This document shows, piece after piece, positions 14,826 through 38,903 of a stretch of DNA of 43,842 bases. Each line of letters opens with the position of its first letter. Position 1 is the first letter of the stretch. Both the position numbers and the translations under genes were made by a program. Where the stretch lies: the NCBI GenBank assembly GCA_003510895.1, contig DOKE01000011.1, forward strand, positions 35,821-79,662, written 5' to 3'. Source of the DNA: Candidatus Moraniibacteriota bacterium. GTDB lineage: Bacteria; Patescibacteriota; Minisyncoccia; Moranbacterales; GWC2-37-73. The notes beneath the pieces were generated by a model. That model worked only from the letters and a program-made list of their open reading frames with translations. It searched no databases and was not told the DNA's origin.

Positions 14826-15869
14826 ATGAAGCAAAAAAAGGCGCTGATAACAGGAATAACTGGGCAGGACGGATCTTATCTTGCAGAATTTCTTTTAGAG
14901 AAAGGGTATGAAGTTCATGGGATAATTCGCAGGTCAAGTTCTTTCAATACAAGCAGGATAAATCATCTTTATAAAGATCCACACCTTAAAGATGTTAAGC
15001 TATTTTTGCATTATGGTGATTTATCCGATGGTAGCAATATCAGTCGTTTGATTGAAAAAATCCAACCAGATGAGATTTATAATTTAGCCGCGCAGAGTCA
15101 TGTGAAAGTTAGTTTTGATGTTCCGAAATATACAGCTGATGTTACTGGAATTGGAACTCTCAGATTGCTGGATGCAATAAAGGAGTCGGGAATTAAAACA
15201 AAATTTTATCAAGCTTCCACTAGCGAACTTTTCGGAAAAGTTCAGGAAACTCCCCAAAAGGAAACTACTCCTTTTTATCCTCGCTCTCCTTATGGATGCG
15301 CAAAAATGTATTCATATTGGATAACGGTTAATTATAGAGAAAGTTATAATTTGTATGCGTGCAATGGAATTCTTTTTAATCATGAATCTCCTAGAAGAGG
15401 AGAAACTTTTGTTACTAGAAAAATAACCAGAGGTTTAGCAAGAATATTGGCAGGAAAAGATAATTGTCTTTATTTGGGAAATCTTGAATCAAAGAGAGAC
15501 TGGGGTTATGCAAAAGATTTTGTAGAAGGAATGTGGTTAATGCTTCAGCAAAAAAATCCTGATGATTTTGTTCTGGCAACAGGAGAAACCCATACAGTAA
15601 AAGATTTTATAGAAGAAAGTTGTAAAGTGGCTGGTATTAAAATTAAATGGAAAGGAAAAAAAGAAAAAGAGGTTGGAATAGATGAGAACACCGGAAAAAC
15701 AATAATTAGAATAGATCCTAAATACTATCGACCGTCGGAAGTGGATTTATTATTAGGTGATCCATCAAAAGCTATGAAAAAATTAAAATGGAAGCCAAAG
15801 ACAAAGTTTAAGGAATTAGTGAAAATAATGATGGAATTTGATTTAGAAAAAGAAGGTGTGATAAAATGA
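14826..15869 (+). CDS. gmd: GDP-mannose 4,6-dehydratase
   Basis: Near-textbook Gmd sequence: [72 protein letters not shown]. Confidence 0.95.
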
Positions 15870-15924
15870 ATTTTAAATAAGCATAAATAAATAAAAATTT
15901 AATTAATAATATTAATAAGAAAGT

Positions 15925-16701
15925 ATGAAGGAAATAAAAGACATCATAAAAAAGATTTTAAGAATGGTTGGGTTATATAAAATTTGGATTGAAGTATTCT
16001 CATTTTTTACGACTGATCCCAGGAAAGAACGAGAAAGAATGGACGATATTTTGAAAATATATTCAAAATTTGTAAAAAAAGGAGATGTTTGTTTTGACAT
16101 TGGGGCTAATATGGGAATAATTACTGAATTACTTTTGAAACTGGAAGTAAAGGTAGTGTGTGTTGAGCCTCAAAAAGACTGTCTGATTATTTTGAAGAAA
16201 AAATTTGGAGATAATGAAAATGTTTTTATCGTAGATAAAGCTGTAGGAGAAAAAGAAGGCGAAGCCGAAATAGCTATATGTGAAGATGCTCCAACTATTT
16301 CAACTATGTCTGATAAATGGAAAGAGGCAGGTCGATTTTCTACTAATTATGAGTGGAATAAAACTCAAAAAGTTGAAATGATTACTCTTGATAAACTCAT
16401 AGAACAATATGGAATGCCATCATTTTGCAAAATTGATGTTGAAGGTTTTGAAGTATCTGCCCTGAAAGGATTAACTAAGGCGATACCTTTTATCTCTTTT
16501 GAATTCACGAAAGAATTTTTTGAAGATGCTAAAACTTGCATAAATCATATTTCCTCCATTGGGAGAGCAAAATTTAATTGTACTTTTTGTGAATCAGAAA
16601 AATTATTATTTCCGAACTGGGTTCCTTCGGAAGAGTTGATATCGAAACTTGAAAATGATAACAATTCTTCTATGGCCGGAGATATTTATGTGAGTTTTTA
16701 A
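15925..16701 (+). CDS. FkbM-family SAM-dependent methyltransferase
   Basis: CFDIGANMGIITE SAM-binding motif and FCKIDVEGFEVSALKG, the FkbM signature. Confidence 0.85.
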   Translation: MKEIKDIIKKILRMVGLYKIWIEVFSFFTTDPRKERERMDDILKIYSKFVKKGDVCFDIGANMGIITELLLKLEVKVVCVEPQKDCLIILKKKFGDNENVFIVDKAVGEKEGEAEIAICEDAPTISTMSDKWKEAGRFSTNYEWNKTQKVEMITLDKLIEQYGMPSFCKIDVEGFEVSALKGLTKAIPFISFEFTKEFFEDAKTCINHISSIGRAKFNCTFCESEKLLFPNWVPSEELISKLENDNNSSMAGDIYVSF

Positions 16702-16713
16702 AACATTTAATTG

Positions 16714-17610
16714 ATGAATAATCTTGATCATAATGAAATAGGGAGTTCGGAAATTTTGAAGTGCCCTTTTTGCAATAGTAGTAAATGTATATTGAGGAGA
16801 ATTTTTTTTTCTGAATTAAATAGGAAAGAATATAGACATTATTCTTGCTTGGGATGCGGAATTGAGTTTTTTGATCCATTGATCTTTGAGAATGTTTATG
16901 ATAACGAAAAAATGGGCGCGTATAAAGAATTTCATAAAGGGAGAATTGAATATCCCGAATGGACAAAGGCCTTTTTGAAGTTTTTGAAAGAGAGGGAAAT
17001 TATTTTAAGCGGAAAGAAAATATTAGAGGTTGGAATGGGTGATGGAATTAATTTTTTAGCGCTTGGTGAAAATTTCAATATCAGCTCTAAAGATTTTTTT
17101 GGAATTGAATTAGATAAAAAAAGTATAGAAGTTTGCAAAAGAAGAAAAGTGGAAAATATTTTTCAAGATTTTTTCAATAAGGAAATATTAGTTAGAATAA
17201 AAGAAAAGTTTGATTTTATTATCGTTACGGAAGTTCTTGAGCATCAAACAAGCCCAAGGGATTTTATGGACACGATTTTCAAATTATTGAAAAAAGATGG
17301 CACAATAATAATTACTGTGCCAAATAGAGAAAGATTTTTTTTACGTTTTAGAGAATATGGCGATGTTCCGCCTCATCATTTTCTTAGATTTGACAAGTCT
17401 TTTTTTGAAAATAATTTTAAAAAAGATTTAATTTATCTTAAAGATTATTCTTTTAACAATAAGAACTTAAAAAATTCTTGTAAGGCGTTGAGTGAAAAAA
17501 TTTTTAGAAATGAAAAAAAATACATATTATTTTTCCCTATTGTGTTAATATTGAGAATTTTGGATGCGATAAGGGGAGAAGGAATAATTGCAGTAATAAA
17601 AAAAAATTAA
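16714..17610 (+). CDS. class I SAM-dependent methyltransferase with N-terminal CxxC...CxxC zinc ribbon
   Basis: CPFCNSSKC...CLGCGIEFF zinc ribbon, ILEVGMGDGINF motif I, IIVTEVLEHQTSP. The ORF track starts at TTG 16711; the ATG is at 16714. Confidence 0.8.
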   Translation: MNNLDHNEIGSSEILKCPFCNSSKCILRRIFFSELNRKEYRHYSCLGCGIEFFDPLIFENVYDNEKMGAYKEFHKGRIEYPEWTKAFLKFLKEREIILSGKKILEVGMGDGINFLALGENFNISSKDFFGIELDKKSIEVCKRRKVENIFQDFFNKEILVRIKEKFDFIIVTEVLEHQTSPRDFMDTIFKLLKKDGTIIITVPNRERFFLRFREYGDVPPHHFLRFDKSFFENNFKKDLIYLKDYSFNNKNLKNSCKALSEKIFRNEKKYILFFPIVLILRILDAIRGEGIIAVIKKN

Positions 17611-17622
17611 TCTGGATAAAAA

Positions 17623-18900
17623 ATGGAAAAAATTATTAGAGCAATACATATAAACATCTTTGGGCATGAAATGAGCGATGCTATGAGAATTTTTTTAAAA
17701 AATCTTTCTTGGTCTTTTTTTGGAGGAATATCGGCAGCGTTAATAATGTTTGTTTTGAGTGTGATGGCAGGGAAAACGTTGGGCCCAGATGCTTTTGGAC
17801 AGTATAACTCACTTCTTTCTTTCGCAACAGCGCTAACCTTTTTATTTTTAATGGGAAATGATGTTAGTAGTGTAAGATATTTGGCTGATAATAATTACGA
17901 AAAAAATAAAGGGGAAATTTTTACCACCTCGATTGTCTTGGTATTAGTGCAATCTTTTGTTTTTGGTTTGTTTTTTTATATATTCTTTAATTTTGTAAGA
18001 ATAAATTTTTCACTGGAAAGTGATAGTTTGCTCTTGGGAATAATTTTCTCTTTTTTTCTGGCGATAAAGAGTCTATTTGATGGATATTTGAGAGCTTTTA
18101 ACTTAATAAAAAGGCAGAGTTTTATAAGAATATCGGATGCGATACTAGTTATATGCTTTTTTTATTTTTTCTATTATTTTTTAGATAAAAGTGATTATTA
18201 TTTTTATGCGATATCTGTATTGTTCGGATCGTTCTTTTTTATTTCTGCTAGTCTAATTGCTCTTAGGGGTAATTTAAGAAAGTTTAGCTTCAAGATGGCA
18301 AAGCTTCTTTTTGGGTATAATAAATTTCTTATTTTTGGAGCTGCAATAGGTTTCATAATAAGTCTGGAGAAATATTTTATAGGTAAATATGTTGGCGCAT
18401 ATGAACTTGGAGTATATAGTGCTTATCATGCAGCTTCTTTTCTTATAATTTCCAATATCGGAGCAGTTTTTATGAATGTTTTTTGGCCAAGTTCAATAAT
18501 GGAAAAAAATAATTTAGAGGCAATATTAAAAAAAATAAATATTTTATTTTTAAAAGCATTTCCTTTTTGGATAATTTTAAACTCGCTCTTTATTTTATTG
18601 GTAATATTTTTAATGGGAGAGAGTTATCCTTTGAATTATGTTTATATTGTATTTTTTTCAATTGATGCGTTTTTATCTTTTGCATTTTCAATTTTTAATG
18701 GGCTACTCAAGATTAATAGGATTAAAGAATTTGTTATTATGTCTTATCTTTGTTATTCCTCTTTAATTATTTTGATAATTTTGTCTAGAAACGTTATGTA
18801 TTATTTGGTTGGACAGGTTTTTATTTATTCTATTTTTATTTTATTTGCAAACAAGAGATTGGGGAAAGATTTTGTCAAAAATAATGAAGTTATAAGATAA
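17623..18900 (+). CDS. Wzx-like oligosaccharide flippase (polysaccharide biosynthesis protein, MOP superfamily)
   Basis: 425 aa with about 12 TM helices and an N-terminal pattern FLKNLSWSFFGG...AGKTLGPDAFGQYN typical of the Polysacc_synt family. Confidence 0.7.
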   Translation: MEKIIRAIHINIFGHEMSDAMRIFLKNLSWSFFGGISAALIMFVLSVMAGKTLGPDAFGQYNSLLSFATALTFLFLMGNDVSSVRYLADNNYEKNKGEIFTTSIVLVLVQSFVFGLFFYIFFNFVRINFSLESDSLLLGIIFSFFLAIKSLFDGYLRAFNLIKRQSFIRISDAILVICFFYFFYYFLDKSDYYFYAISVLFGSFFFISASLIALRGNLRKFSFKMAKLLFGYNKFLIFGAAIGFIISLEKYFIGKYVGAYELGVYSAYHAASFLIISNIGAVFMNVFWPSSIMEKNNLEAILKKINILFLKAFPFWIILNSLFILLVIFLMGESYPLNYVYIVFFSIDAFLSFAFSIFNGLLKINRIKEFVIMSYLCYSSLIILIILSRNVMYYLVGQVFIYSIFILFANKRLGKDFVKNNEVIR

Positions 18901-20075
18901 TGAAAAAAATCCTATTTACATTATATAAAAATAGAAGTCATTCTTTGTATAAAGAATTTATTGATAATCCTCCGGAGGGATACCAGTATTTTACATTAGA
19001 TGATTTTTTTGATTATTTTATTTTTGATAAACCTGCTAATCTTTTTTTGGATATAAAAAGAAAAATAGAAAGAGACAAGAAAATAATAGAAGCTGCCAAA
19101 AAAAATGGCATTGATATTATTTATTGTTCTGATGGATTGTTTTTTCTAAATTCTCCTATTCCGTGGGTTATGGACTTAGAGCATGTTACCGGGCTAATAT
19201 CCAATTGTTATAAATTATGGAAAATTGGAAAGTTAATAATGCCCATTATTCTTAGTCAGAAGAATTTAAAATATATAATTCCTTGGACAAAGACAGGAGC
19301 AAATGTTCTTGAGGATAATTTCAAAATAAATGACAGTGTAAGAAAAAAAATTAAGCCAATAAATTTATGTCTCAAGAAAATTTATGACTATGGGTATATA
19401 GAAAAGAAAAAGATTAAAGGGGTAAAATTTTCAATCATTTTTGTTACTAGTGTGAACTATAATGGAGAAGATGAATTTTATGCCAAAGGTGGCGCGATAA
19501 TAGCGGAAGTTTTTAAAAAAATAAATACAAAAGTTGATATTAGGTTGATTTTGAGAAGTAAAATTCCTAAAGAGTTTGATTACCTAAAGAAAGATCCTTC
19601 CGTGGAAGTTTATGAAGAGACGCTTAATGATGATGAATTTCAGAATTTGTTTTTGGGTGCGGATTTATTTTTTTATCCCGGATATCAAAGTCCCGGTATG
19701 GCTTTTCTTGACGCTATGAATTATAATTTACCTATCGTTTCCACTCGGGTTTTTGCCAACCCAGAGATGGTAAGAGATGGTTGGAATGGTTTTCTTGTTG
19801 ATTTTCCAATATCAAGCATTGCTTTCTATTTAACTGAAGAATTTAATATAAAAGGTGTTCCGTCTGGAATAAGAGCAAGAGAGGATAAATTAAGCGAGAA
19901 AATGATTGATGATTTTGCGGAAAAAATAATTCAGTTGCAAAAGAATAGGGAAGTGCTGGAGGAGATGGGGGTAAATTCAAAGAAGTTGCTTTTAAATAGC
20001 TTCTCTCTGGCCAAAAGGAATAGGGCGTTAGAAGATATCTTTAATGAGATAATAAATACTAATAAAAAAATATGA
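18900..20075 (+). CDS. divergent GT-B (GT4-like) glycosyltransferase, paralog A
   Basis: C-terminal FFYPGYQSPGMAFLDAMNYNLPIVSTRVFANPEMVRDGWNGFLV. This is the GT1/GT4 motif with Q...D in place of E...E. TAATG overlap with the flippase gene. Confidence 0.7.
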   Translation: MKKILFTLYKNRSHSLYKEFIDNPPEGYQYFTLDDFFDYFIFDKPANLFLDIKRKIERDKKIIEAAKKNGIDIIYCSDGLFFLNSPIPWVMDLEHVTGLISNCYKLWKIGKLIMPIILSQKNLKYIIPWTKTGANVLEDNFKINDSVRKKIKPINLCLKKIYDYGYIEKKKIKGVKFSIIFVTSVNYNGEDEFYAKGGAIIAEVFKKINTKVDIRLILRSKIPKEFDYLKKDPSVEVYEETLNDDEFQNLFLGADLFFYPGYQSPGMAFLDAMNYNLPIVSTRVFANPEMVRDGWNGFLVDFPISSIAFYLTEEFNIKGVPSGIRAREDKLSEKMIDDFAEKIIQLQKNREVLEEMGVNSKKLLLNSFSLAKRNRALEDIFNEIINTNKKI

Positions 20076-20839
20076 AAAAAGAATTAAGAAGATTTGCAGG
20101 CTTTGTTTATCGCATGATTTCTCCCATAGTTGATCCTATAAATTTTACATTTTTTATTCCAAGATATGTATATTTTTGGATAGATTTTTTTAGTTTTTAT
20201 AGCAACAAGGAATCTCCAAAAATAAATTTATTAGATATGCATCCCGTGATTAGTGATAAAACATCAACCACAAGAATTGATGCTCAATATTTCTACCAAG
20301 GAGTCTGGGCTTTTAAGAAGATTTATAATTCAAAAGTGGTTGAACATGTTGATGTTGGATCGCAAACCAATCTAGTTAGCTTTCTAACGGTATTTACAAA
20401 TGTAAAATTTGTAGACATAAGACCATTGGAGGCTAAGCTTGATAATTTTGTTTCAATTAAGGGAAGTATTCTTGAATTACCTTTTACCGATAACTCAGTG
20501 CATTCTCTTTCTTGTCTTCATGTTGCTGAGCATATAGGTCTAGGTAGATATGGTGATCCATTAGATCCGCTTGGGACAGAGAAGGCGTGCAAGGAACTTT
20601 CTCGCGTATTAGCGTCTGGCGGAGATTTATATTTTTCTTTGCCTATCGGTAAGCCGAGGTTATGTTTCAATGCTCATAGAGTTCATTCAATTAGTCAGAT
20701 AATGGAATTTTTCAAAGAGTTGGAGCTTTTAGAACTTATAGTTATTGACGATAAGGGAGGATTTGTCGAAAGACCAGGAGTGCATGATTTTGATGATGCA
20801 ATATATTCAGGTGGTCTGTTTCACTTCAGAAAAAAATAA
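20072..20839 (+). CDS. DUF268-type SAM-dependent methyltransferase
   Basis: LPFTDNSVHSLSCLHVAEHIGLGRYGDPLDPLG matches the DUF268 GLGRYGDP signature. ATGA overlap with the upstream GT gene. Confidence 0.75.
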   Translation: MKKELRRFAGFVYRMISPIVDPINFTFFIPRYVYFWIDFFSFYSNKESPKINLLDMHPVISDKTSTTRIDAQYFYQGVWAFKKIYNSKVVEHVDVGSQTNLVSFLTVFTNVKFVDIRPLEAKLDNFVSIKGSILELPFTDNSVHSLSCLHVAEHIGLGRYGDPLDPLGTEKACKELSRVLASGGDLYFSLPIGKPRLCFNAHRVHSISQIMEFFKELELLELIVIDDKGGFVERPGVHDFDDAIYSGGLFHFRKK

Positions 20840-20852
20840 TCTTATCAATGAA

Positions 20853-23452: not shown

Positions 23453-23459
23453 ATTTTTT

Positions 23460-28953: not shown

Positions 28954-28997
28954 TTTTTTATTTTTTTTAAAATTATTAATTATTTGTTAATTGCTGA

Positions 28998-30890: not shown

Positions 30891-31744
30891 TGTTTTTTTA
30901 TTAAAACCATATTAAATGATAATGTTTGTAAATCTTTATTTGGATATTTTTTTATCAAATTTTTTGGTATTGCTTCTTTGAAAATAATATTTTTTTCTAA
31001 ATTTGTAATTTTTAAGTTATGTTTATTTGCTAAGTATTCATAAAAATCCAATCTTTTCCTGTTGACATATTCACCTGTATTTTTAAATAAAGCATTAAAC
31101 CAAAAATCACTGATATTTAGAAACCATAATTTTTTTTGTGAAAATACGTGGTCTCTTAAATCGACTTGATGGTTCATAATTCCTCCTAATTCGAGAACCC
31201 GAGTCATCTCCTGAAAGCAGAGCTCTAAATTATGTACATGTTCTAATACTGCGCAGGAGTATATTAAATCAACTGAATTATTGGCAATACTATATTTTGA
31301 ATTTTGATTTATTTTAACAAACTCAACCATTTGAGGATTATATGTATAAATCTCATTCTTCTTATTGAAAAATTTATTTATTAATAATGTATTATTATCG
31401 AGTAATTTCTTATAGGATTTAATTTGACCCGGGGTAATAAAGGAGTGTTGTCCGTTTTCAATAGCGTAGTATTTTCTTGCTCCATTTTTTAGAGCTAAAA
31501 TCCCAAAACCTATTGATCCTCCGGGACCAAGCTCGAGCAATACTTTGTCTTTTATTGAATTGATTCCCCCGACTTTTTGTAGAAAATCATCAAATTGTTT
31601 TTTTGAGTATTCTAGATGTTTGTCATTGAACTGGTAAGGATTATATATGTATTTTTCAATTATTTCTCTGAATTTAGGAAATAATGAAAATAATATGTTT
31701 TCTATCAAAACCAAAGGAATCTTTAAGAATGTCTTTATAGTCAT
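30878..31744 (-). CDS. class I SAM-dependent methyltransferase
   Basis: LLELGPGGSIGFG motif I and IYSCAVLEHVHNLELCFQEM. I start at ATG 31744 (MTIKTFL...); the ORF-track start at 31828 would overlap the upstream GT gene by 74 nt. Confidence 0.75.
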   Translation of the reverse strand: MTIKTFLKIPLVLIENILFSLFPKFREIIEKYIYNPYQFNDKHLEYSKKQFDDFLQKVGGINSIKDKVLLELGPGGSIGFGILALKNGARKYYAIENGQHSFITPGQIKSYKKLLDNNTLLINKFFNKKNEIYTYNPQMVEFVKINQNSKYSIANNSVDLIYSCAVLEHVHNLELCFQEMTRVLELGGIMNHQVDLRDHVFSQKKLWFLNISDFWFNALFKNTGEYVNRKRLDFYEYLANKHNLKITNLEKNIIFKEAIPKNLIKKYPNKDLQTLSFNMVLIKKQCAE

Positions 31745-31754
31745 GGAGGGTCTT

Positions 31755-32897: not shown

Positions 32898-35104
32898 AGT
32901 ATTTTCCAAATTACAATATCATTTTTTTTGTCTTCATATATGCGTATAAATTTTTCTGGATATTGGTCAAAAATTAAATCATTTTTATTAATACTGTTTT
33001 CTTTATAATAAGGCCTATTAAGGTATGGATTGAGTTTGTTGGGTTTTGCGTAATAAATATATAAGGCTGGTTCGTAGGCGTCATTATTTGCTTCTAGATT
33101 TAATAAGGAAAGTAATGCATTTGATTGCTGAATATTTTCTTTGAGCATAGTTACAAATAGTTCTTTTTCCGTGTAAGGATTTTTAATAATTAGTTCATTG
33201 GCGTTTTTTTTGATTGATTCAATGTAAGACGAATAGTCTTTTTTTGAAATCGATTTATCTGGGATGTTTTTGTTTATTATTTCTGTTGCTACTAAATTGT
33301 TGAAAAAAAATTCTGTGGGAACTTTTTGTACTTCTGATTTTCCATAGTATTTTAATAAATTTCTATCTAGATCAGTAAAAAATAATCTATTGGTTGGTAA
33401 ATTTTTGTTTATCCATTCAGTTGATTGAATCTTTGCGCTTGTTATTATGTATTTTTTTAAATTATTAATGTACAAAGCTCCACCGACGCTTATGAAAATA
33501 AGAAATATTAATAAAAAATAAACATATTTAAAATCGTTTTTTAAGACATTTAACATTACAAATAAAAATGTTAGTGAAAAAATTCCTGTAAATACCCATG
33601 CTCTCTCAGGAAGCAGCGCAAAATTTAAAAGTCGTGGTAAAATTTCCGAGATAGAAAAAAATATTAAAAAACAAAGAGTAAGGATTATAAATTCCTTCTC
33701 TGTTTTTAATGAATAAAAATGTTTTCGGAGAACTTTATTCTTAATGAAAAGATACACAAAAAACAATATTAAAAAAATCAAAGCTGGACCAATATAATAA
33801 AGATAATATTTAGATACACCTATAAATCCCTCCCATCCCATACTTTGTCCATTCATATTTACGTAATATGCAGGAAAAATAAAATTAAATTTTGCAGAAA
33901 ATGAATATTTCAATACTAATTTAACCCAATAGGAGATGAATATAGCCTGGTTTTTTATAAAAGGAATATTTGAAGTAATGAAAAAAATGACAATCAGCGT
34001 GGTGAGTCTATTTTTTAATATAAATGTAACAATATTTTTTATATTAAAAAATATTGTTACTAAAATCCAGACAGTAAAAGCAATCGCAAGCATCTCATGA
34101 TAAGACGATCCGAGAAGCACTATGATTCCGGATAAATAATAGAAAAATGATTTTTTAAATAACCAGGAATAAATTAAAAAGAAGAAGAAGTAAAAGATTA
34201 ATATTATTGCAATTGCTTGTGGTATTGGAGTTTGCAGATATAAAATTGTTGATGAGCTGATTAATGGTGTTAACAGTATGAGTATTTGTGTGATTTTTTG
34301 TGGATATTTATTGGCCACTAGTGACGCTGGTATTAATATTACAAGGGATAATAATGGAAGTATATATTTAAAAACTGTATACATTCCAATATCAGACCCT
34401 TGGTTTAATATGTATATTAGCGATGAAAAAAGATACCTATCTGAAGATATTTTTGTGACAGACTTTGCTGCAAATTCTTCGGAATATCTTTGCATCCAGT
34501 AAAATGGATCAAGGTCAGACAGCGCATAATAGGTTAAGAAAATGATAGTAGTTAGTGATATATAAAAAAGTAAAATCCAAAAAAAAGTTGAAGAAAAAAG
34601 GGAAGTAATTATTTTTTTGTTAAATCTTTCGATTTTAAAATCCAATTTGTTTTCTACGTCCTTATTTTTAAGATAGTAGGCTAGTGTTGTTATCAAAAAA
34701 ATTATAAAAGAGTTTATGGCTGGTAACTCTGGTGATAATATTTTTATTTCAGAGAACTCAATTGTTATCAGAAGCGGTGGTAGGAGCAGGCTTATTGCGG
34801 AAGATATACTTATAAATTCCCAAAAATTAAAATCTTTATTAAAAAATAATTTAATTAAAATAGTCGAATTTATTCCAAACAGGACTAAAATAGCTATAAA
34901 TTTTATTAAAGAATGTAGAAAATGGAAAGCAAAAAAATAATCCAGTTTTCCTAGAAGTTGAAATAGAATATAAAATATAAAGAATATAATGTTTAACTTT
35001 ATTAGTAATTTTAAATTACTCTTTTTCATTTGTGTATTTTTTGATATTAACAAGTACAATTTTAACATAAAAGTGAACAAAAGCAAGGCGTGGTTGATGG
35101 GCAT
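32894..35104 (-). CDS. large polytopic membrane protein with C-terminal soluble domain; GT-C-like transferase or polymerase candidate
   Basis: 736 aa with about 15 TM helices followed by about 180 aa of hydrophilic sequence. A loop carries the acidic motif SDLDPFYWMQRY. The start is uncertain (ATG 35104 or ATG 35029, MKKSNLK...). Confidence 0.55.
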   Translation of the reverse strand: MPINHALLLFTFMLKLYLLISKNTQMKKSNLKLLIKLNIIFFIFYILFQLLGKLDYFFAFHFLHSLIKFIAILVLFGINSTILIKLFFNKDFNFWEFISISSAISLLLPPLLITIEFSEIKILSPELPAINSFIIFLITTLAYYLKNKDVENKLDFKIERFNKKIITSLFSSTFFWILLFYISLTTIIFLTYYALSDLDPFYWMQRYSEEFAAKSVTKISSDRYLFSSLIYILNQGSDIGMYTVFKYILPLLSLVILIPASLVANKYPQKITQILILLTPLISSSTILYLQTPIPQAIAIILIFYFFFFLIYSWLFKKSFFYYLSGIIVLLGSSYHEMLAIAFTVWILVTIFFNIKNIVTFILKNRLTTLIVIFFITSNIPFIKNQAIFISYWVKLVLKYSFSAKFNFIFPAYYVNMNGQSMGWEGFIGVSKYYLYYIGPALIFLILFFVYLFIKNKVLRKHFYSLKTEKEFIILTLCFLIFFSISEILPRLLNFALLPERAWVFTGIFSLTFLFVMLNVLKNDFKYVYFLLIFLIFISVGGALYINNLKKYIITSAKIQSTEWINKNLPTNRLFFTDLDRNLLKYYGKSEVQKVPTEFFFNNLVATEIINKNIPDKSISKKDYSSYIESIKKNANELIIKNPYTEKELFVTMLKENIQQSNALLSLLNLEANNDAYEPALYIYYAKPNKLNPYLNRPYYKENSINKNDLIFDQYPEKFIRIYEDKKNDIVIWKIL

Positions 35105-35284: not shown

Positions 35285-35488
35285 ATGTTAGAAAAAAATG
35301 AAAAAATCAAAATATTAAATATTGGATGGATCTTGGGGTTTTTAATAAGTTATTTTCTATTTACTTCCATTTTGTTTTTTATTTTAAATAAGAATAGGAT
35401 TTTTTTAGATTTAATTTATTTTAAATCTATCTTGATTACAATTAGTTTGCTTTTAACAAGTAAGCTGATAAAACAGCTTTTAAAATAA
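35285..35488 (+). CDS. small 2-TM membrane protein (possible N-terminal half of an SxtJ-like protein)
   Basis: 67-aa ORF with two hydrophobic helices, first in the plus-strand operon, 4 nt upstream of the next small ORF. Confidence 0.45.
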   Translation: MLEKNEKIKILNIGWILGFLISYFLFTSILFFILNKNRIFLDLIYFKSILITISLLLTSKLIKQLLK

Positions 35489-35492
35489 TATT

Positions 35493-35729
35493 ATGAAATA
35501 TTTTATACAAGAATTTAAAGAGGGAATGAGGTATTTCGGAGATAGTATTAGTTTTTTGGTCAATGTTTTTTTATTTTCAATAGTTTATTTGATTGGTATT
35601 GGAATAACTTCGATTTTTATGAAAATTTCTAGAAAACATTTATTGGAAATTAAAAATTCCAAAAAGGATTCTTACTGGAAAGATTTGAATTTAAAAGGCG
35701 ACATAGATAATTATTATAATCAATTCTAG
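35493..35729 (+). CDS. small membrane protein, SxtJ-like C-terminal region (tentative)
   Basis: 78 aa. The TM segment plus LFSIVYLIGIGITSIFMKISRKHLLEIKNSKKDSYWKD resembles, from memory, the conserved C-terminal part of SxtJ-family proteins found beside carbamoyltransferases. Confidence 0.45.
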   Translation: MKYFIQEFKEGMRYFGDSISFLVNVFLFSIVYLIGIGITSIFMKISRKHLLEIKNSKKDSYWKDLNLKGDIDNYYNQF

Positions 35730-35731
35730 GT

Positions 35732-37492
35732 ATGTATATATTAGGAATTAGTTGTTTTTATCATGATTCATCCGCTGTTTTATTAAAGGATGGAATGATT
35801 GTCGCTGGAGCTGAAGAGGAGCGATTTTCTCGCAAAAAACATGACAATGGTTTTCCTGAAAAAGCCATAGACTTTTGTCTTTTGAGCCAAGGCATTCTTA
35901 TTGAAGATATTGATTATGTGGCTTTTTATGAAAAACCTCTGCTTAAGTTTGAAAGAATATTGAGTCAACATATAGAAGTTTTTCCTAGAAGTTTTAAGAC
36001 CTTTATCAGTTCAATGCCTTCTTGGGTAAATGAAAAAGTTAGAGTTCAGGGAATAATTCAAAAAAAATTAAAATTTAAAGGGGATATTTTTTTTATTGAA
36101 CATCATCTTTCCCATGCTTCGAGCGCTTTTCTGCCTAGTCCCTTTGAAAAAGCCGCTATTTTAACGGTTGACGGAGTAGGCGAATGGTCAACAACTACCC
36201 TGGGAAGGGGTATTGGTAGTAAAGTGGAATTAATGAAAGAAATAAGATTTCCTCATTCATTAGGACTTTTATATTCAACAATAACAGCTTATTTGGGTTT
36301 TAGTGTAAACAATTCAGAATATAAAATAATGGGCTTAAGCGCCTATGGAAATATGGACAGGAATTCGAATGAATATTATCGAAAAATTTTAAACGTCGTT
36401 AATATAAAAGAAGATGGAAGCTATGAAATGGATATGTCATATTTTAAATATCATTATGCTGACAAAATGCCTTCTAAAAAACTATGTAATTTATTAGGTG
36501 GCCCTGTTTTTAAAAGAAACAGTGAGGTGACTAAGACGCACAAAGACATAGCAGCTGCAATTCAGATGGTTACGGAAGATATTATGACAAAAATGTTACA
36601 TTATCTTTATTTAATTACTGGTCTTGAAAATGTAGTATTAGCGGGAGGGGTCGCTTTGAACAGTGTTTATAACGGTAAAATTATTTCAAAAACTCCTTTT
36701 AAGAATATTTGGATACAACCCAATGCTTCAGATGGAGGAACGAGTATGGGAGCTGCTTTATTTGCATATAACTCAATCTTGGAAAATGAGAGAGTATATG
36801 TATTAAAAAATGCTTATTTAGGACCTCAATTTTCAGATAAAGAGATAGAAAACTTTTTAAAAGAGAATAAAATAAAATATTCTGAATTTTCTTCTGATTC
36901 TGAGATTGTTAAGAAAGTAGCAAGATTGATTTTTGAAAATAATGTTATCGGGTGGTTTCAAAAGGGAATGGAATGGGGTCCAAGGGCTCTTGGAGCAAGA
37001 AGTGTTTTGTCTAATCCGGCTAATATTAAAATGAAGGAAATACTAAATTTGAAGGTGAAACATCGTGAAAAATTTAGACCATTTGCTCCTGTTGTATGCG
37101 CCGATGATGCTGATAAATATTTTGATTGCGATAAACCTATTCCTGATTCAGCAGACTTTATGCTTATGGTATATCCGATTAAAGAGGAATTTCGTGATAA
37201 AATACCAGCAGTGACTCATGTGGATGGATCAGGAAGACTTCAAACGGTGAAAAGAAATCAAAATCCATTATATTATGATTTAATAAAAGAATTTGGTAGT
37301 ATAAGTAAAATGCCAATACTCATCAATACTTCTTTTAATGTAAGAGGAGAGCCTATTGTTTGTACAATCGAAGATGCTTATCGCTGTATGATGGGAACCG
37401 AAATTGATTATCTTGTTGCTGGAAAATTTATAATTAAAAGAGCAGACAATGCAAGGGATATATGGAATAGTGAATTAACTGCTAATGATTAA
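35732..37492 (+). CDS. NodU/CmcH-family carbamoyltransferase
   Basis: MYILGISCFYHDSSAVLLKDGMIVAGAEEERFSRKKHD, EHHLSHASSAF, and a C-terminal YrdC-like/Kae1-like organisation typical of O-carbamoyltransferases. Confidence 0.9.
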   Translation: MYILGISCFYHDSSAVLLKDGMIVAGAEEERFSRKKHDNGFPEKAIDFCLLSQGILIEDIDYVAFYEKPLLKFERILSQHIEVFPRSFKTFISSMPSWVNEKVRVQGIIQKKLKFKGDIFFIEHHLSHASSAFLPSPFEKAAILTVDGVGEWSTTTLGRGIGSKVELMKEIRFPHSLGLLYSTITAYLGFSVNNSEYKIMGLSAYGNMDRNSNEYYRKILNVVNIKEDGSYEMDMSYFKYHYADKMPSKKLCNLLGGPVFKRNSEVTKTHKDIAAAIQMVTEDIMTKMLHYLYLITGLENVVLAGGVALNSVYNGKIISKTPFKNIWIQPNASDGGTSMGAALFAYNSILENERVYVLKNAYLGPQFSDKEIENFLKENKIKYSEFSSDSEIVKKVARLIFENNVIGWFQKGMEWGPRALGARSVLSNPANIKMKEILNLKVKHREKFRPFAPVVCADDADKYFDCDKPIPDSADFMLMVYPIKEEFRDKIPAVTHVDGSGRLQTVKRNQNPLYYDLIKEFGSISKMPILINTSFNVRGEPIVCTIEDAYRCMMGTEIDYLVAGKFIIKRADNARDIWNSELTAND

Positions 37493-37495
37493 AAT

Positions 37496-38656
37496 ATGTC
37501 AAAAATAAAAAATATTATAATTGGTTTTGGTATTTCTTTGATAACCTTCTTAATTTTATTTTTTGGAACAGAATTTTATTTCAGGTTATTTAATCCTCAA
37601 ATAAAAAGTTTTCTTAAGCCCGATTTAGTCTTAGGAACAAAACATATTCCAAATATGATATTGGAGGAATCAGATTCTTGTGTAGAAGCGATTTTTAGCT
37701 TTAACTCGGAAGGAATGAGAGATATAGAACATTCAATTGAAAAACCGGAAGGGGTATATAGAATTGCGATTATTGGAGATTCTTATGTTGCAGCAATGCA
37801 TTATAATTTTGAGGATGCATTTTTTAAACAAATGGAATCAAATTTGAATAAAAAAGGAAAACGTGTCGAAGTATTATCTTTTGGAGTTTCTGGTTTCGGT
37901 ACTGCCCAGGAGTATTTGCTTTTGCGAGATTATGCTTTAAAATATTCTCCTGATTTGGTGATACTTTCTTTTTTTTCAGCTAATGACATTAGAAATAATT
38001 CTTTTGAATTGGAAAAAAGTCCGAATATGCCATATGCTTCCTTGGATAATTCCGGCAATTTATTTTTTAATGATTTTAAAATATCTAATTCATATTTAAA
38101 TCAATATAATAGCAAATTGAGAACTTTATTCTTTGATAAATTACACGTGGTTAGATACATTTACAGGCTTTCAAACAAATCAATCCCTTTTAGAAATTTA
38201 CTTGCTAGATTTAATTTGCATACCCAAACAGAATCAACTGAAAAATCGACCGACAGTTATGCTGTGTATTTCAAGGATATTCCTTTAGAATGGGAGCAAG
38301 CGTGGAAAACTACCGAATCATTAATTTTAAAAATAAAAAAGGAATCGGAGGATAATGGGGTTGGATTTTTGTTATTTTCTCTTTCCAATCCTGAACAAGT
38401 TTCTCAAGAATTGTTTAGTCAGTTGGAAAAATCTCACGAGGGAATAGAATTAGATAAATATGAACCGGAAAAAAGACTTTTAGAATTTACAAATAAAAAT
38501 AATATAAAGTATTTGTCTGCTCTTTCCGCGATGGAAAGTTTAAATTATCAGAAAATTGTCGTACATCCTTCTTGTCATGAGCACTGGTCAAAAGAGGCAA
38601 ATCATTTAGCAGGAAATTTATTATCCGATTATATTTTAAAAAATATTTTAAATTAA
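37496..38656 (+). CDS. membrane-anchored SGNH/GDSL-like hydrolase or acyltransferase
   Basis: N-terminal TM, block I YRIAIIGDSYVAA (GDS), and an ND-containing block LSFFSANDIRNN. Confidence 0.6.
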   Translation: MSKIKNIIIGFGISLITFLILFFGTEFYFRLFNPQIKSFLKPDLVLGTKHIPNMILEESDSCVEAIFSFNSEGMRDIEHSIEKPEGVYRIAIIGDSYVAAMHYNFEDAFFKQMESNLNKKGKRVEVLSFGVSGFGTAQEYLLLRDYALKYSPDLVILSFFSANDIRNNSFELEKSPNMPYASLDNSGNLFFNDFKISNSYLNQYNSKLRTLFFDKLHVVRYIYRLSNKSIPFRNLLARFNLHTQTESTEKSTDSYAVYFKDIPLEWEQAWKTTESLILKIKKESEDNGVGFLLFSLSNPEQVSQELFSQLEKSHEGIELDKYEPEKRLLEFTNKNNIKYLSALSAMESLNYQKIVVHPSCHEHWSKEANHLAGNLLSDYILKNILN

Positions 38657-38741
38657 AAAATGTCAGGAGAGCTAGATAAGATTAACGCTAATATTTCTTA
38701 GTATGTGTAATTTTATTTTAATTCTTGGATTAATATAGATT

Positions 38742-38903
38742 ATGAAAAAAAACACAGGGCTTCTAATTCAGGCATGTATTTTTTTAAAGGAAAAAAGAGC
38801 TTGGTGGATGGTGCCAATTATAATTATGATATTTTTTGTTGGAGCTCTTGTTATCTTTGCTCAAAGCAGCGCAATAAGTCCTTTTATTTATAGCTTATTT
38901 TGA
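38742..38903 (+). CDS. DUF5989-family (SxtK-like) small membrane protein
   Basis: This ORF is not in the supplied track (53 aa). My own translation is MKKNTGLLIQACIFLKEKRAWWMVPIIIMIFFVGALVIFAQSSAISPFIYSLF. It fits the DUF5989 pattern (KERKxWWxxPII...ApFIYxxF). Confidence 0.75.
   Translation: MKKNTGLLIQACIFLKEKRAWWMVPIIIMIFFVGALVIFAQSSAISPFIYSLF

Follow-up and report, generated by a model that had tools for sequence, protein, structure and literature searches.

A methyltransferase-rich glycan island in a Moraniibacteriota-like bacterium is an expanded form of a cassette conserved across Patescibacteria

The window analysed here is a 43,842-nucleotide stretch of DNA from a Moraniibacteriota-like Patescibacterium (Candidate Phyla Radiation), an uncultured, ultra-small organism. 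Its glycan island is not a one-off: it is the richest version, among the loci compared, of a lineage-wide Patescibacteria cassette. The reading of the locus as a cell-surface glycan biosynthesis and tailoring cluster, taken whole with the lipid-linked assembly mechanism proposed below, is moderately probable, and its product is most likely a cell-surface sugar chain bearing extensive methylation as well as amidation and carbamoylation. The unusually high methyltransferase load for which the island was singled out is supported.

Where homologues of MEM736, the GT39-type protein and MT8 have a named source, it is Moraniibacteriota/Patescibacteria. The GC content is 29.5% inside the island versus 34% in its flanks, and a plus-strand operon (14826 to 22004) converges on a minus-strand operon (35104 to 22017). 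In one assembly the contig stops at the left edge of the window. The genes annotated between 14826 and 38903 are real, but relevant genes extend past that interval (DUF2304, GT2p, the GT39-type GT-C and a GtrA-like fragment). Positions from 22017 to 31755, initially given as gene starts, are 3' ends because these genes lie on the minus strand. True ATGA overlaps occur at 5 of the 19 same-strand junctions in 14826-38903: 20072 (MT3 with upstream GT4a), 22820 (MT4 with MT5), 24461, 25261 and 32897 (GT4d with the GT-C gene MEM736). To describe most genes as chained in this way was thus an overstatement; four further junctions overlap by 1-13 nt and the remaining ones are gaps of 2-85 nt. The features are as follows.

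13265-14824, minus: GT39/PMT-type GT-C glycosyltransferase, from homologues' families; divergent from gmd
14826-15869, plus: gmd, GDP-mannose 4,6-dehydratase, source of 6-deoxyhexose (PF16363, 524.9 bits, full length)
15925-16701, plus: MT1, FkbM-family methyltransferase (TIGR01444, 91 bits, cut-off 37.7; PF05050; motif FDIGANMG)
16711-17610, plus: MT2, class I methyltransferase (Methyltransf_23/11; motif LEVGMGDG; likely ATG at 16714)
17623-18900, plus: Wzx-type (MOP superfamily) flippase (PF01943 Polysacc_synt, 57 bits, cut-off 28.2)
18900-20075, plus: GT4a, GT-B glycosyltransferase (Glyco_trans_1_4/Glycos_transf_1)
20072-20839, plus: MT3, DUF268-type methyltransferase with divergent motif I (PF03269, 46.7 bits, cut-off 25; Methyltransf_11)
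20853-22004, plus: GT4a2, tandem paralogue of GT4a (Pfam GT-B)
22017-22820 (ORF to 22844), minus: MT4, class I methyltransferase (Methyltransf_11, 63.5 bits; start ATG 22820)
22817-23452, minus: MT5, MetW/Methyltransf_23-like methyltransferase with degenerate glycine motif
23460-24461, minus: GT4b, GT-B glycosyltransferase (Glycos_transf_1, 73 bits; orthologues in 11 relatives)
24458-25261, minus: GT2e, EpsE-like GT2 glycosyltransferase (PF00535, 83.5 bits)
25258-25938, minus: MT6, class I methyltransferase (Methyltransf_11, 45.6 bits)
25931-26764, minus: MT7, class I methyltransferase with hydrophobic segment (Pfam, hydrophobicity scan)
26766-27869, minus: GT4c, core GT-B glycosyltransferase (Glycos_transf_1, 133.7 bits; orthologues in 26 relatives)
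27859-28953, minus: MT8, core methyltransferase with Trm112-like N-terminal domain (Pfam, NCBIfam)
28998-30890, minus: AsnB-type glutamine amidotransferase, core gene (PF00733, 317 bits)
30878-31744 (ORF to 31828), minus: MT9, class I methyltransferase of 288 aa in the gene calls of the source contig (Methyltransf_11; motif LELGPGG)
31755-32897, minus: GT4d, core GT-B glycosyltransferase (Glycos_transf_1, 111 bits; orthologues in 36 loci)
32894-35104, minus: MEM736, predicted GT-C-fold membrane glycosyltransferase, 736 aa (AF2, Foldseek; start 35104 or 35029)
35285-35729, plus: pair of small membrane-protein ORFs (67 aa and 78 aa) at the head of the carbamoyltransferase operon; only the 78-aa ORF is called on the source contig
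35732-37492, plus: NodU/CmcH-type carbamoyltransferase (PF02543, 274 bits; PF16861, 234 bits)
37496-38656, plus: membrane-anchored SGNH/GDSL-like hydrolase or acyltransferase (PF13472 Lipase_GDSL_2, 26.4 bits, cut-off 32.9)
38742-38903, plus: DUF5989 small membrane protein (PF19451, 61.9 bits)
38888-39250, minus: DUF2304 (GacJ/Rv3632-like), small membrane partner of GT2p (PF10066, 58.3 bits)
39263-39958, minus: GT2p, polyprenyl-phosphate sugar synthase-like GT2 of PpgS/AglJ/GacI type (PF00535, 94.7 bits)
43499-43804, minus: GtrA-like protein truncated by the window end (full-length counterpart on L010)

Profile searches with Pfam and NCBIfam uphold the gene assignments, and all nine methyltransferase ORFs exist and match class I SAM-methyltransferase models. 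None reaches the cut-off of an NCBIfam equivalog (housekeeping family), in keeping with the initial view that they are not housekeeping orthologues: the best NCBIfam match of MT2 is UbiG (48.5 bits versus a cut-off of 103), and MT6 partially matches MftM (37.5 versus 200). By sequence the nine are mutually very divergent, the best-matching pair being 26% identical over 286 aa; sequence and fold searches do not separate O-, N- and C-methylases among them. MT2 has an N-terminal zinc ribbon of two CxxC motifs (CPFC, CLGC) and a C-terminal hydrophobic helix (segment 269-296 in a hydrophobicity scan); searches of PDB and NCBIfam find no relative of MT3. The glycine-rich motif I is retained in seven of the nine; MT3 and MT5, with degenerate SAM motifs, might be inactive.

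Across 40 related loci 26% of the ORFs on the downstream side of the GT-C gene are methyltransferases, versus 2.4% on the upstream side. Relatives have a median of 3 and a maximum of 4 in the 10 kb downstream, and the window has 5, or 9 in 20 kb. At a base rate of 2-3%, at least 9 methyltransferases among 24 ORFs would arise by chance with a probability of about 5e-10 to 2e-8. The norm of zero to two per locus assumed initially is too low, a locus of T. forsythia having three. Nor do the data show a glycan methylated at nearly every residue: three methyltransferases act on one fucose of M. tuberculosis PGL (PMC3594219), and three in T. forsythia add two methyl groups (PMC6120980). Nine divergent enzymes imply a large number of different methylation sites, several of which may fall on the same sugar, and not necessarily nearly every residue.

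Some 35 related genomes have the cassette (35 loci found in GTDB species genomes), in the conserved order GT2p-DUF2304-GT-C-GT4-(MT)-AsnB-MT-GT4-(MT)-GT2-GT4-MT(s). L046, whose MT8 homologue is labelled Saccharimonadales, repeats the order from AsnB onward and has two UDP-sugar dehydrogenases upstream, an enzyme absent from the window. Comparison of related genomes, proposed as a check on conservation, shows a conserved core, with the remaining genes semi-variable or with one counterpart or none in most or all relatives. Orthologue counts for the core, which is common to dozens of related genomes, are GT4d 36, MEM736 30, GT2p 27, GT4c 26, AsnB 24 (52-83% identity), DUF2304 23 and MT8 18 (58-77%); MT8 has 781 homologues, the few with a source name being Patescibacteria, and an AF2 model with pLDDT 86.6. 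The semi-variable arm after the core comprises MT7 (6 relatives, 54-73% identity, fused to GT2 in two), GT2e (14 relatives; in L005 and L006 as a fusion with the MT7 orthologue), GT4b, MT5 (3 relatives, 52-66%), MT4 (5 relatives, 48-57%) and MT9 (L002, L005 and L006, 61-71%). Five of the nine methyltransferases thus have orthologues in relatives' cassettes. Counts fall to 0 for the other four, MT1, MT2, MT3 and MT6, in the flanks fetched, and for distal plus-operon genes this absence is weak because flanks cover only ±10 kb. MT6 is a window-specific insertion between MT7 and GT2e. For the GT4a/GT4a2 duplication, the Wzx gene and the SGNH gene, too, the flanks fetched from all or most relatives show no counterpart; gmd and the carbamoyltransferase have one each (L029, 48% identity, and L038). 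The carbamoyltransferase operon sits between DUF2304 and the GT-C gene in the window; in L002, L003, L004, L006 and L007 DUF2304 lies directly upstream of the GT-C gene. The cassette is common to many relatives and not yet studied.

All six Leloir glycosyltransferases are confirmed by Pfam, five (18900, 20853, 23460, 26766 and 31755) as GT-B/Glycos_transf_1 and one (24458) as GT2, the latter nearest to EpsE in NCBIfam (121 bits, cut-off 450). GT4a and GT4a2 are 50% identical; in the GT4a2 ORF called from a TTG, the alignment starts at residue 37, which places the ATG at 20853. GT2p best matches PpgS (147.6 bits, cut-off 370) and AglJ (114.8, cut-off 325). The GT39-type protein has no direct Pfam match and about a dozen partly overlapping hydrophobic segments; of the homologues listed at 45-56% identity, most have PF02366 and/or PF13231, and GT family 39 is the name given to some. 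MEM736 matches neither Pfam nor NCBIfam, its family (393 representatives) lacking a Pfam model. Its AF2 model (pLDDT 83.7, pTM 0.83) bears out the GT-C likeness first noted, with oligosaccharyltransferases as the closest folds: the top 17 Foldseek PDB matches (E 2.5e-7 to 6e-3, TM about 0.4) are PglB/STT3/AglB, bar one C-mannosyltransferase DPY19, followed by ALG9/12 and ArnT. Beyond the first core TM lies an acidic [DE]xD motif, and [DE]xDP occurs in 122 of 167 family members.

Pfam also confirms gmd, Wzx, AsnB, the carbamoyltransferase and DUF5989 where they were annotated. Wzx has many partly overlapping hydrophobic segments along its length. The carbamoyltransferase scores 154 bits against the NodU model (cut-off 1000), and the 67-aa and 78-aa ORFs have no family match. 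The SGNH protein is present with its GDS block (IIGDSY) and an N-terminal TM, but its Pfam match is weak and below cut-off; it also matches the LA_2490 SGNH family at 30.7 bits. The full 150-aa GtrA-like gene on L010 matches PF04138 GtrA_DPMS_TM. AsnB begins MCGI, so its nucleophile Cys2 is intact, and among NCBIfam models it comes closest to the EPS-associated TIGR03108 (616 bits, cut-off 817); it also passes the generic asparagine synthase model (TIGR01536, 486 bits, cut-off 267), which leaves a metabolic role conceivable.

In the proposed mechanism, GT4 and GT2 enzymes would build an oligosaccharide on polyprenyl phosphate at the cytoplasmic face; among its roughly 5-7 sugars would be a 6-deoxyhexose derived from GDP-mannose and probably a uronic acid. 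Position-specific methyltransferases, two of them with hydrophobic segments and one, MT7, fused to GT2 in relatives, may tailor the oligosaccharide while it is lipid-linked; AsnB would amidate it, probably at the uronic-acid carboxyl, and it would be carbamoylated. After flipping by Wzx, MEM736 might transfer the glycan to a surface acceptor (protein or cell-wall polymer), methylation producing a hydrophobic, strain-specific surface epitope. Because WWDYG occurs in 0 of 167 family members and TM-scores are only about 0.4, this en bloc transfer stays an inference; a single-sugar, GacL-like role for MEM736, tightly linked to GT2p-DUF2304, fits equally well. The assembly logic, initially called unclear, becomes clearer with the genes that flank the interval. 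As first reported, the window has no initiating phosphoglycosyltransferase, Wzz or ABC exporter detectable by Pfam/NCBIfam, nor a Wzy, and six Pfam-annotated relatives have none of these families. GT2p and DUF2304 could supply a polyprenyl-P-sugar donor or could make the first lipid-linked sugar, as in haloarchaea, which would explain the missing phosphoglycosyltransferase; that enzyme, a polymerase or a ligase may also lie elsewhere in the genome.

One or two methyltransferases suffice for a repetitive polymer. The four genes listed for the MMP cluster encode one mannosyltransferase, two methyltransferases and a hydrolase, and include neither a flippase nor a GT-C (PMC9883506). Mycobacterial polymethylated polysaccharides are cytoplasmic, whereas Wzx, three GT-C enzymes and the GacI/GacJ-like pair indicate that the glycan here is lipid-linked and exported; MMP/MGLP, first named as the closest analogue, is therefore a poor one. 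GT2p and DUF2304 resemble the GacI/GacJ and PpgS/Rv3632 pairs, with precedents in GacI (GT2), GacJ (DUF2304), GacL (GT-C) and GacK (Wzx-like) and in PpgS with Rv3632 (bioRxiv 10.1101/180810). In haloarchaea AglJ begins the glycan on dolichol phosphate, in a system that also includes the methyltransferase AglP, AglR and AglB (PMC3871713); the MEM736 fold is nearest PglB/STT3/AglB but lacks the WWDYG of N-oligosaccharyltransferases. A further precedent, the T. forsythia locus, combines Wzx, five Gtf, three Mtf and AsnB (PMC6120980).

The gene calls for the glycan island (14826-38903) are based on an ORF listing with Pfam and NCBIfam scans, which bear out the gene list of the initial annotation: nine methyltransferases, six glycosyltransferases, gmd, a Wzx flippase, an AsnB-type amidotransferase, a carbamoyltransferase, and DUF5989. 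By Pfam, the six Leloir glycosyltransferases comprise five GT-B (Glycos_transf_1) enzymes (GT4a, GT4a2, GT4b, GT4c, and GT4d) and one GT2 (GT2e, EpsE-like). The family calls are solid for gmd (14826-15869, plus strand), the Polysacc_synt (Wzx, MOP) flippase (17623-18900; PF01943, 57 bits), the AsnB-type amidotransferase, the NodU/CmcH-type carbamoyltransferase, and DUF5989; the SGNH call is sub-threshold (26.4 bits vs. 32.9), with a GDS block seen. The amidotransferase AsnB (28998-30890, minus strand) has the N-terminal Cys nucleophile and both the GATase and Asn_synthase domains; among specific models it comes nearest to the EPS-associated TIGR03108 (616 bits, under the 817 cut-off).

Methyltransferase ORFs of the island; all nine contain a class I SAM-methyltransferase domain
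15925-16701, plus strand, MT1, FkbM family
16711-17610, plus strand, MT2
20072-20839, plus strand, MT3, DUF268
22017-22844, minus strand, MT4
22817-23452, minus strand, MT5
25258-25938, minus strand, MT6
25931-26764, minus strand, MT7
27859-28953, minus strand, MT8
30878-31828, minus strand, MT9

The layout differs from that first described: the genes between 22017 and 35104 lie on the minus strand, and the island consists of two convergent operons, one running from 14826 to 22004 on the plus strand and the other from 35104 to 22017 on the minus strand. The description of most genes as chained by ATGA overlaps was overstated; true ATGA overlaps occur at only five junctions, and four more overlap by 1-13 nt. 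Functionally linked genes sit just outside the interval. The flanks have a GC content of ~34%, compared with 29.5% in the island; neither tRNA genes nor Rfam elements were found in the window. At a base rate of 2.4%, the methyltransferase share of ORFs in the upstream flanks of related loci, nine methyltransferases among 24 genes corresponds to P ~1e-9 to 1e-8; the feature is real and non-random, and the initial annotation was broadly right in proposing a hyper-tailored glycan. A phage or plasmid origin was rejected, as all neighbors are of chromosomal type and MAG chromosomes carry the cassette in syntenic form; a natural-product glycoside cluster was rejected because PKS, NRPS, and aglycone genes are absent from the window (Pfam).

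The island is not a one-off, as orthologue counts and a shared gene order identify it as the expanded form of a cassette held in common with relatives. A scan of GTDB species genomes finds 35 loci with a cassette of the type that includes MEM736, the 736-aa membrane protein encoded at 32894-35104 (minus strand); most are labeled Moraniibacteriota/Moranbacteria, Patescibacteria group, Andersenbacteria, Berkelbacteria, or Saccharibacteria, and a locus like L046 has a Saccharimonadales label. The named homologues of MT8 and of a GT39-type protein of the window belong to Patescibacteria; homologues of MEM736 are few in a word-indexed search, and one of them comes, by its name, from a Candidatus Moraniibacteriota MAG. 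About 15 loci from TPA MAGs are labeled "uncultured Bdellovibrionales" (L012, L014, L016, L018, L021-L023, L026, L028, L030, L031, L035, and L036 among these), a label that looks taxonomically wrong for MAGs with a Patescibacteria-type cassette. A literature search found no description of this cassette or glycan locus in CPR/Patescibacteria.

Comparison of Pfam-annotated contexts, together with local BLAST of 40 related loci, gives a recurrent order: GT2 (PpgS/AglJ-like)-DUF2304-~700-aa membrane protein-GT4-(MT9)-AsnB-MT8-GT4-(MT7)-GT2-GT4-one to three methyltransferases-GT4-Wzx. In the comparison of related genomes, as proposed in the initial annotation, the core genes are conserved and the distal arm is variable, with orthologue counts falling to zero.

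Orthologues of window genes in related loci (at least 30% identity and at least 60% coverage)
GT4d, GT-B glycosyltransferase, 36 loci
MEM736, 736-aa membrane protein, 30 loci
GT2p, PpgS/AglJ/GacI-type GT2, 27 loci
GT4c, GT-B glycosyltransferase, 26 loci
AsnB, amidotransferase, 24 loci (52-83% identity)
DUF2304, GacJ/Rv3632-like small membrane protein, 23 loci
MT8, methyltransferase, 18 loci (58-77% identity)
GT2e, EpsE-like GT2, 14 loci
GT4b, GT-B glycosyltransferase, 11 loci
MT7, methyltransferase, 6 loci
MT4, methyltransferase, 5 loci
MT5, methyltransferase, 3 loci
MT9, methyltransferase, 3 loci
gmd, 1 locus
Carbamoyltransferase, 1 locus

MT1, MT2, MT3, MT6, GT4a/GT4a2, the Wzx of the window, and the SGNH protein have no orthologues in the related loci, although the lack of the distal plus-strand operon genes in relatives is weak evidence because flanks were fetched only to +/-10 kb. 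Methyltransferases make up 26% of the ORFs downstream of the membrane-protein gene in relatives vs. 2.4% of those upstream (~11-fold), and the downstream ratio of methyltransferases to glycosyltransferases is 0.61. Per 10 kb downstream, relatives have a median of three methyltransferases and a maximum of four, compared with five in the window, where there are nine in 20 kb. These counts come from BLAST closure with propagation through long proteins blocked; they agree with the Pfam annotation of L002-L007 and miss one end-truncated FkbM ORF in L008. Given this enrichment across relatives, methyltransferase richness is a property of the lineage's cassette, and the window has the extreme methyltransferase load among the loci seen.

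The overall picture that we consider probable is that of a non-repeating lipid-linked oligosaccharide that is tailored, flipped by Wzx, and moved to a surface acceptor. GT4d, GT4c, GT2e, GT4b, and GT4a/GT4a2 would build the oligosaccharide on polyprenyl phosphate at the cytoplasmic face, with gmd leading to a 6-deoxyhexose precursor; no GDP-fucose synthase, Rmd, or aminotransferase partner is recognizable alongside gmd. Position-specific methyltransferases, the AsnB homologue, and the carbamoyltransferase would tailor the glycan; the likely target of AsnB is a uronic-acid carboxyl, because UDP-sugar dehydrogenases flank the cassette in four relatives (L002, L003, L006, and L046). Wzx would then flip the tailored glycan, and MEM736, as an oligosaccharyltransferase-like GT-C enzyme, would hand it to the surface acceptor; this en bloc transfer step by MEM736 is about half as probable as the picture as a whole. 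The GT2p/DUF2304 pair may either provide a separate polyprenyl-P-sugar donor in the style of the Gac system or add the first lipid-linked sugar, as does AglJ in Haloferax; an AglJ-like start by GT2p would explain the missing phosphoglycosyltransferase.

MEM736 is predicted to have a multi-span GT-C fold. Its AF2 model, made with 17 homologues (pLDDT 83.7, pTM 0.83), has oligosaccharyltransferases (PglB, yeast and human STT3, and AglB) as 16 of its top 17 Foldseek matches, the remaining one being the C-mannosyltransferase DPY19. These matches have E-values of 2.5e-7 to 6e-3 and TM scores of 0.36-0.41 over 590-770 columns, with a Foldseek probability of 1.00 against PglB, STT3, and AglB; ALG9/12 rank lower, followed by ArnT (E 0.23), and then Emb and Pmt4. 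The family has ~393 representatives at 50% identity, and members whose source could be checked (the P0001-P0022 and P0263-P0407 set) belong to Patescibacteria. There is no Pfam or NCBIfam model for the family: Pfam scans of 17 family and 10 distant members assign no family and give only sporadic sub-threshold matches to PMT_2 and DUF6798, the family profile has no meaningful match among PDB sequences (including no HMMER similarity to any oligosaccharyltransferase), and the best 150 of 393 profile matches contain no bridge to a known GT-C family. A conserved acidic motif, DLDPFYW at residue 172 of the family protein P0001, follows a TM helix, and [DE]xDP is found in 122 of 167 family members; it appears to occupy the usual position of the GT-C catalytic Asp, with a putative extracytoplasmic sidedness. 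In family members of ~590 aa the motif comes directly after the first TM helix and the first four MEM736 helices are missing, so these four N-terminal helices are an add-on. The WWDYG motif is lacking (none of 167 members has WWD or W[WYF]D[YWF]G), and an SISEILPR motif may be akin to SVSE/TIXE.

The family type of GT2p (39263-39958, minus strand), a predicted short polyprenyl-phosphate sugar synthase GT2, is clear; its best NCBIfam matches, below equivalog level, are PpgS (147.6 bits, cut-off 370) and AglJ (114.8 bits, cut-off 325). DUF2304 (38888-39250, minus strand; PF10066, 58.3 bits) is encoded directly downstream, a pairing kept in 23 loci. In the GacI/GacJ and PpgS/Rv3632 systems such a small protein stimulates the polyprenyl-phosphate sugar synthase, whose product is supplied to a GT-C enzyme (bioRxiv 10.1101/180810). 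An arrangement of the GacI/GacJ/GacL or PpgS/Rv3632/Rv3779 type is less likely here but is the main rival: GT2p and DUF2304 would make a polyprenyl-P-monosaccharide, GtrA or Wzx would flip it, and MEM736 would add one sugar to a glycan outside, the methylated oligosaccharide being attached by another enzyme, such as a GT39 GT-C or an unlinked ligase. The documented GacI/J/L precedent and the PpgS and AglJ matches of GT2p fit this arrangement, as do the contiguity and common orientation of GT2p, DUF2304, and the ~700-aa GT-C gene in five relatives (L002, L003, L004, L006, and L007), the orthologues of all three in 23-30 related loci, the GtrA-like genes near the cassette, and the two further GT-C proteins encoded in the window. 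It is opposed by the Foldseek ranking, in which ArnT falls far behind the oligosaccharyltransferases (E 1e-7 to 1e-4), and by the position of MEM736, which stands at the head of the oligosaccharide-building operon, ATGA-coupled to its first core GT4; moreover, the separate ligase or oligosaccharyltransferase that it calls for is not recognizable.

Features of the window outside the two convergent operons
1526-2644, further glycosyltransferase
2667-3065, 132-aa protein with four membrane segments
4417-6222, minus strand, 601-aa protein, weakly PMT_2/LA_3751-like
6252-8846, plus strand, ClpB/AAA_2-type ATPase of 864 aa with a TTG start; its first 190 residues include hydrophobic TM-like segments, unusual for Clp ATPases
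10375-11556, further glycosyltransferase
11553-12506, plus strand, extended-SDR epimerase/dehydratase, under all specific NCBIfam cut-offs (best dTDP-glucose 4,6-dehydratase, 183 bits, and GalE)
13265-14824, minus strand, 519-aa GT39/PMT-type GT-C membrane protein, divergent from gmd
35285-38903, plus strand, carbamoyltransferase operon
39263-39958, minus strand, GT2p, further glycosyltransferase outside the island
40051-43139, minus strand, upstream of GT2p, run of four proteins, secreted or TM-anchored, that match no family
43499-43804, minus strand, GtrA-family gene (polyprenyl-P-sugar flippase-like), cut off by the right end of the window

With MEM736, the 44 kb encode three GT-C-type membrane glycosyltransferases, all on the minus strand (4417-6222, 13265-14824, and 32894-35104). 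The GtrA-family gene is complete in L010 (876-1328); to the right of the window there are only 2.6 kb of sequence, with DUF948 beside GtrA, and on the left the contig of one assembly stops at the window end. The proteins encoded at 40051-43139 comprise one of 483 aa whose N-terminal half is repetitive and rich in Lys and Tyr, an acidic one of 182 aa that is rich in Cys, one of 103 aa, and one of 239 aa with a repetitive and charged sequence of helix-like character; L029 shows synteny for the first two, and all four might be acceptors or surface components. The contig as a whole is given over to envelope glycosylation.

Pfam scans uphold the initial annotation in finding no initiating phosphoglycosyltransferase, Wzz, or ABC exporter in the window: Bac_transf and Glycos_transf_4 have no match among window ORFs of at least 100 aa or in six relatives (L002, L003, and L005-L008), and Wzy_C, Wzz, LCP, and ABC exporter models have none in the window or six annotated relatives. 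The latter result makes improbable a Wzx/Wzy-type repeat-unit polymer (capsule, O-antigen-like, or secondary cell-wall polysaccharide), for which the polymerase, chain-length regulator, and initiating transferase would have to be divergent or elsewhere, with MEM736 or another multi-pass protein as polymerase or ligase. Such a polymer would accord with the presence of Wzx, the lower GC content of the island, and the drop in conservation from core to distal genes, which resembles the pattern of serotype-variable polysaccharide loci. The several unannotated membrane proteins of the window also left room for a polymerase, but three of the four multi-pass proteins with no significant Pfam match turned out to be of GT-C type (GT39-like, PMT_2/LA_3751-like, and MEM736), the exception being the 132-aa protein at 2667-3065.

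The initial annotation named the mycobacterial polymethylated polysaccharides (MMP/MGLP) as the closest analogues, and the window resembles them in having many methyltransferases beside GT4-type transferases, methylated glycans in both cases coming from GT4-like enzymes and SAM-methyltransferases. The MMP cluster, however, consists of four genes (ManT, MeT1, MeT3, and the hydrolase MmpH) for a repetitive homopolymer, with no flippase, export, or GT-C function (PMC9883506). By gene set the window does not match it, having export-type genes (Wzx, three GT-C enzymes, the DUF2304/GT2 pair, and GtrA) and no recognized hydrolase, and a repetitive homopolymer does not need nine different methyltransferases; the mechanistic match is poor, and a cytoplasmic polymethylated storage or lipid-binding polysaccharide is highly improbable.

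The methyltransferases themselves are diverse. The most similar pair, MT7 and MT8, is only 26% identical, so they are not recent duplicates; the glycine-rich motif I is recognizable in seven of the nine, MT3 and MT5 being divergent. The sole NCBIfam model passed is the generic FkbM domain, by MT1. None of the nine reaches the NCBIfam equivalog cut-off for UbiG, BioC, CmoB, PrmA, MetW, RsmA, or other housekeeping enzymes (UbiG 48.5 vs. 103, CmoB 48 vs. 209, and PrmA 36.5 vs. 183), and the housekeeping orthology that the initial annotation had raised as the countercase is thus not found. Sorting into O-, N-, and C-methylases by Foldseek or sequence, also proposed there, failed: in sequence searches of the PDB, MT1, MT3, and MT8 match nothing or generic class I methyltransferases (CmoB and UbiG), and the AF2 model of MT8 has more than 1000 about equal Foldseek matches across O-, N-, and C-methylases, RebM and AtmM (which methylate sugar oxygens) among them, so that the substrate class of MT8 is not assignable by fold.

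MT8 has a Trm112-like N-terminal beta-domain, confidently modeled (NCBIfam scan and AF2), and 781 homologues, the best 120 of which are all at least 59% identical; its conserved neighbors are AsnB and GT4c, and it is almost always beside a highly conserved AsnB paralogue. By homology, MT8 is a predicted Patescibacteria-wide enzyme, and MT8 and AsnB have the appearance of a conserved pair that functions together. A four-Cys ribbon at the N-terminus and a hydrophobic helix at the C-terminus mark MT2, a hydrophobic segment is present in MT7, and in two relatives the orthologues of MT7 and GT2e form one 550-aa fusion protein (L005, 8952-10604; L006, 18229-19887). These hydrophobic parts and fusions suggest that methylation may take place at the membrane on lipid-linked intermediates. 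In the window (24458-26764) MT6 is placed between MT7 and GT2e, and since their orthologues are fused in the two relatives MT6 looks inserted. GT4a and GT4a2, tandem paralogues that are 50% identical, flank MT3 at 18900-22004 (plus strand); elsewhere, the DUF268 family of MT3 has been described in glycosylation-gene clusters of C. elegans (PMC7614267). That some or most of the methyltransferases act elsewhere than on glycan, as housekeeping, lipid, or protein methylases or inactive paralogues, is hardly credible: weak sub-threshold likeness to the UbiG, BioC, CmoB, PrmA, and MetW models, degenerate motif I in MT3 and MT5, and the very wide conservation of MT8 in Patescibacteria stand against scores far under all curated cut-offs, operon positions between glycosyltransferases with many overlapping stop/start codons, the MT7-GT2 fusions, the neighbors of MT8, and the ~11-fold enrichment downstream of the GT-C gene.

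The comparison defines a conserved and recognizable cassette (GT2/DUF2304, the new GT-C family, AsnB, the Trm112-domain methyltransferase, and GT4s) with a variable methyltransferase-rich arm, of which the window has the most elaborate form among the loci seen. The kind of system, a lipid-linked, Wzx-dependent glycan assembly with tailoring, is already known; what is new is the unexplored lineage and a GT-C family that has no Pfam model and could enter domain databases. A bolder reading, which we regard as rather doubtful, is an undescribed, lineage-wide Patescibacteria pathway of archaeal logic, in which GT2 and DUF2304 start the glycan on polyprenyl monophosphate with no phosphoglycosyltransferase, GT4/GT2 enzymes extend it, AsnB, the Trm112-domain methyltransferase, and up to eight more methyltransferases tailor it, and the WWDYG-less GT-C family (~390 clusters) acts as oligosaccharyltransferase onto surface proteins or wall; the resulting coat would be near-permethylated, hydrophobic, and strain-variable. 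Candidate Phyla Radiation bacteria are thought to live attached to host cells, and we know of no experimental data on their surface chemistry; if the bolder reading is true, a near-permethylated coat could matter for episymbiont-host attachment and phage evasion. An oligosaccharide with several methyl groups as well as amide and carbamoyl modifications, if that is the product, would rank with the most heavily tailored bacterial glycans predicted from gene clusters known to us. The cassette would offer a well-defined object for heterologous expression or, in the few Saccharibacteria-type lineages that can be cultivated, for genetic work, for which a system has been published.

Among known systems, precedents exist for parts of the locus. 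The carbamoyltransferase operon encodes two small membrane ORFs, the carbamoyltransferase (154 bits on the NodU model vs. a cut-off of 1000), a TM-anchored SGNH/GDSL protein, and DUF5989; it is placed between DUF2304 and MEM736, which are adjacent in the same five relatives in which the GT2p-containing trio is contiguous, and in L038 the carbamoyltransferase is divergent from the GT-C gene. In the saxitoxin cluster sxtL is a GDSL lipase, and DUF5989 may, by its length, correspond to SxtK. The carbamoyltransferase gene sxtI is listed there beside sxtJ (134 aa), sxtK (54 aa), and sxtL (PMC2679770), the same parts list as at 35285-38903, in a likeness by gene lengths only. By analogy, this suggests a portable four-gene carbamoylation module. 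The Nod-factor enzymes (NodU/NolO, NodS, and NoeI) share with the window a NodU-type carbamoyltransferase and, in the window beside gmd, an FkbM methyltransferase, NoeI being an FkbM-type fucose 2-O-methyltransferase; the substrates are a chitooligosaccharide for the Nod-factor enzymes and an alkaloid for the saxitoxin module.

PGL tailoring, to which that of glycopeptidolipids is similar, concerns actinobacterial glycolipids on PKS/NRPS cores, and its cluster is not known to include Wzx or GT-C. For PGL-tb, three methyltransferases per-O-methylate one terminal fucose (PMC3594219). The window, with gmd beside MT1 and MT2, may be alike by enzyme role, with several regiospecific O-methyltransferases for few sugars; a methyltransferase to glycosyltransferase ratio near or above 1 therefore has precedent, often on 6-deoxyhexoses.

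The GacI/GacJ/GacL and PpgS/Rv3632/Rv3779 systems share with the window a ~230-aa GT2, a DUF2304 partner, a GT-C, and a flippase, the trio being adjacent in relatives. There the three components attach a single sugar to a polymer built by a separate machinery, whereas in the window the GT-C heads an operon of GT4, GT2, methyltransferase, and AsnB genes. GacL is assigned an ArnT-type GT-C fold; by structure, MEM736 appears closer to oligosaccharyltransferases than to ArnT. In Haloferax volcanii, glycan synthesis begins with AglJ (GT2) on polyprenyl monophosphate and involves no phosphoglycosyltransferase; soluble glycosyltransferases (AglG/I/E) extend the glycan, the SAM-methyltransferase AglP modifies a hexuronic acid, the Wzx-like AglR takes part in flipping, and the GT-C oligosaccharyltransferase AglB transfers the product (PMC3871713). 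GT2p matches the AglJ model, and AglB and STT3 are among the best structural matches of MEM736; however, GT2p is under the AglJ cut-off and scores higher on PpgS, MEM736 has no WWDYG, one methyltransferase there compares with nine in the window, and the lineage of the window is bacterial.

Patescibacteria are not known to have an outer membrane, and T. forsythia (Bacteroidetes) belongs to a different phylum. Its genes for general protein O-glycosylation form one polycistronic cluster with Wzx, five Gtfs, three Mtfs, and an AsnB-type amidotransferase; the genes listed include no initiating transferase or oligosaccharyltransferase, and the glycan is non-repeating and species-specific (PMC6120980). 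The window differs in having nine methyltransferases rather than three, gmd in place of nonulosonic-acid genes, and a carbamoyltransferase, a GT-C, and a GT2/DUF2304 pair, of which the first is not mentioned for T. forsythia and the others are not in the listed gene set. Among the systems compared, the T. forsythia O-glycosylation locus is closest to the window in gene content, and either the haloarchaeal Agl pathway or the Gac/Ppg three-component systems are closest in logic.
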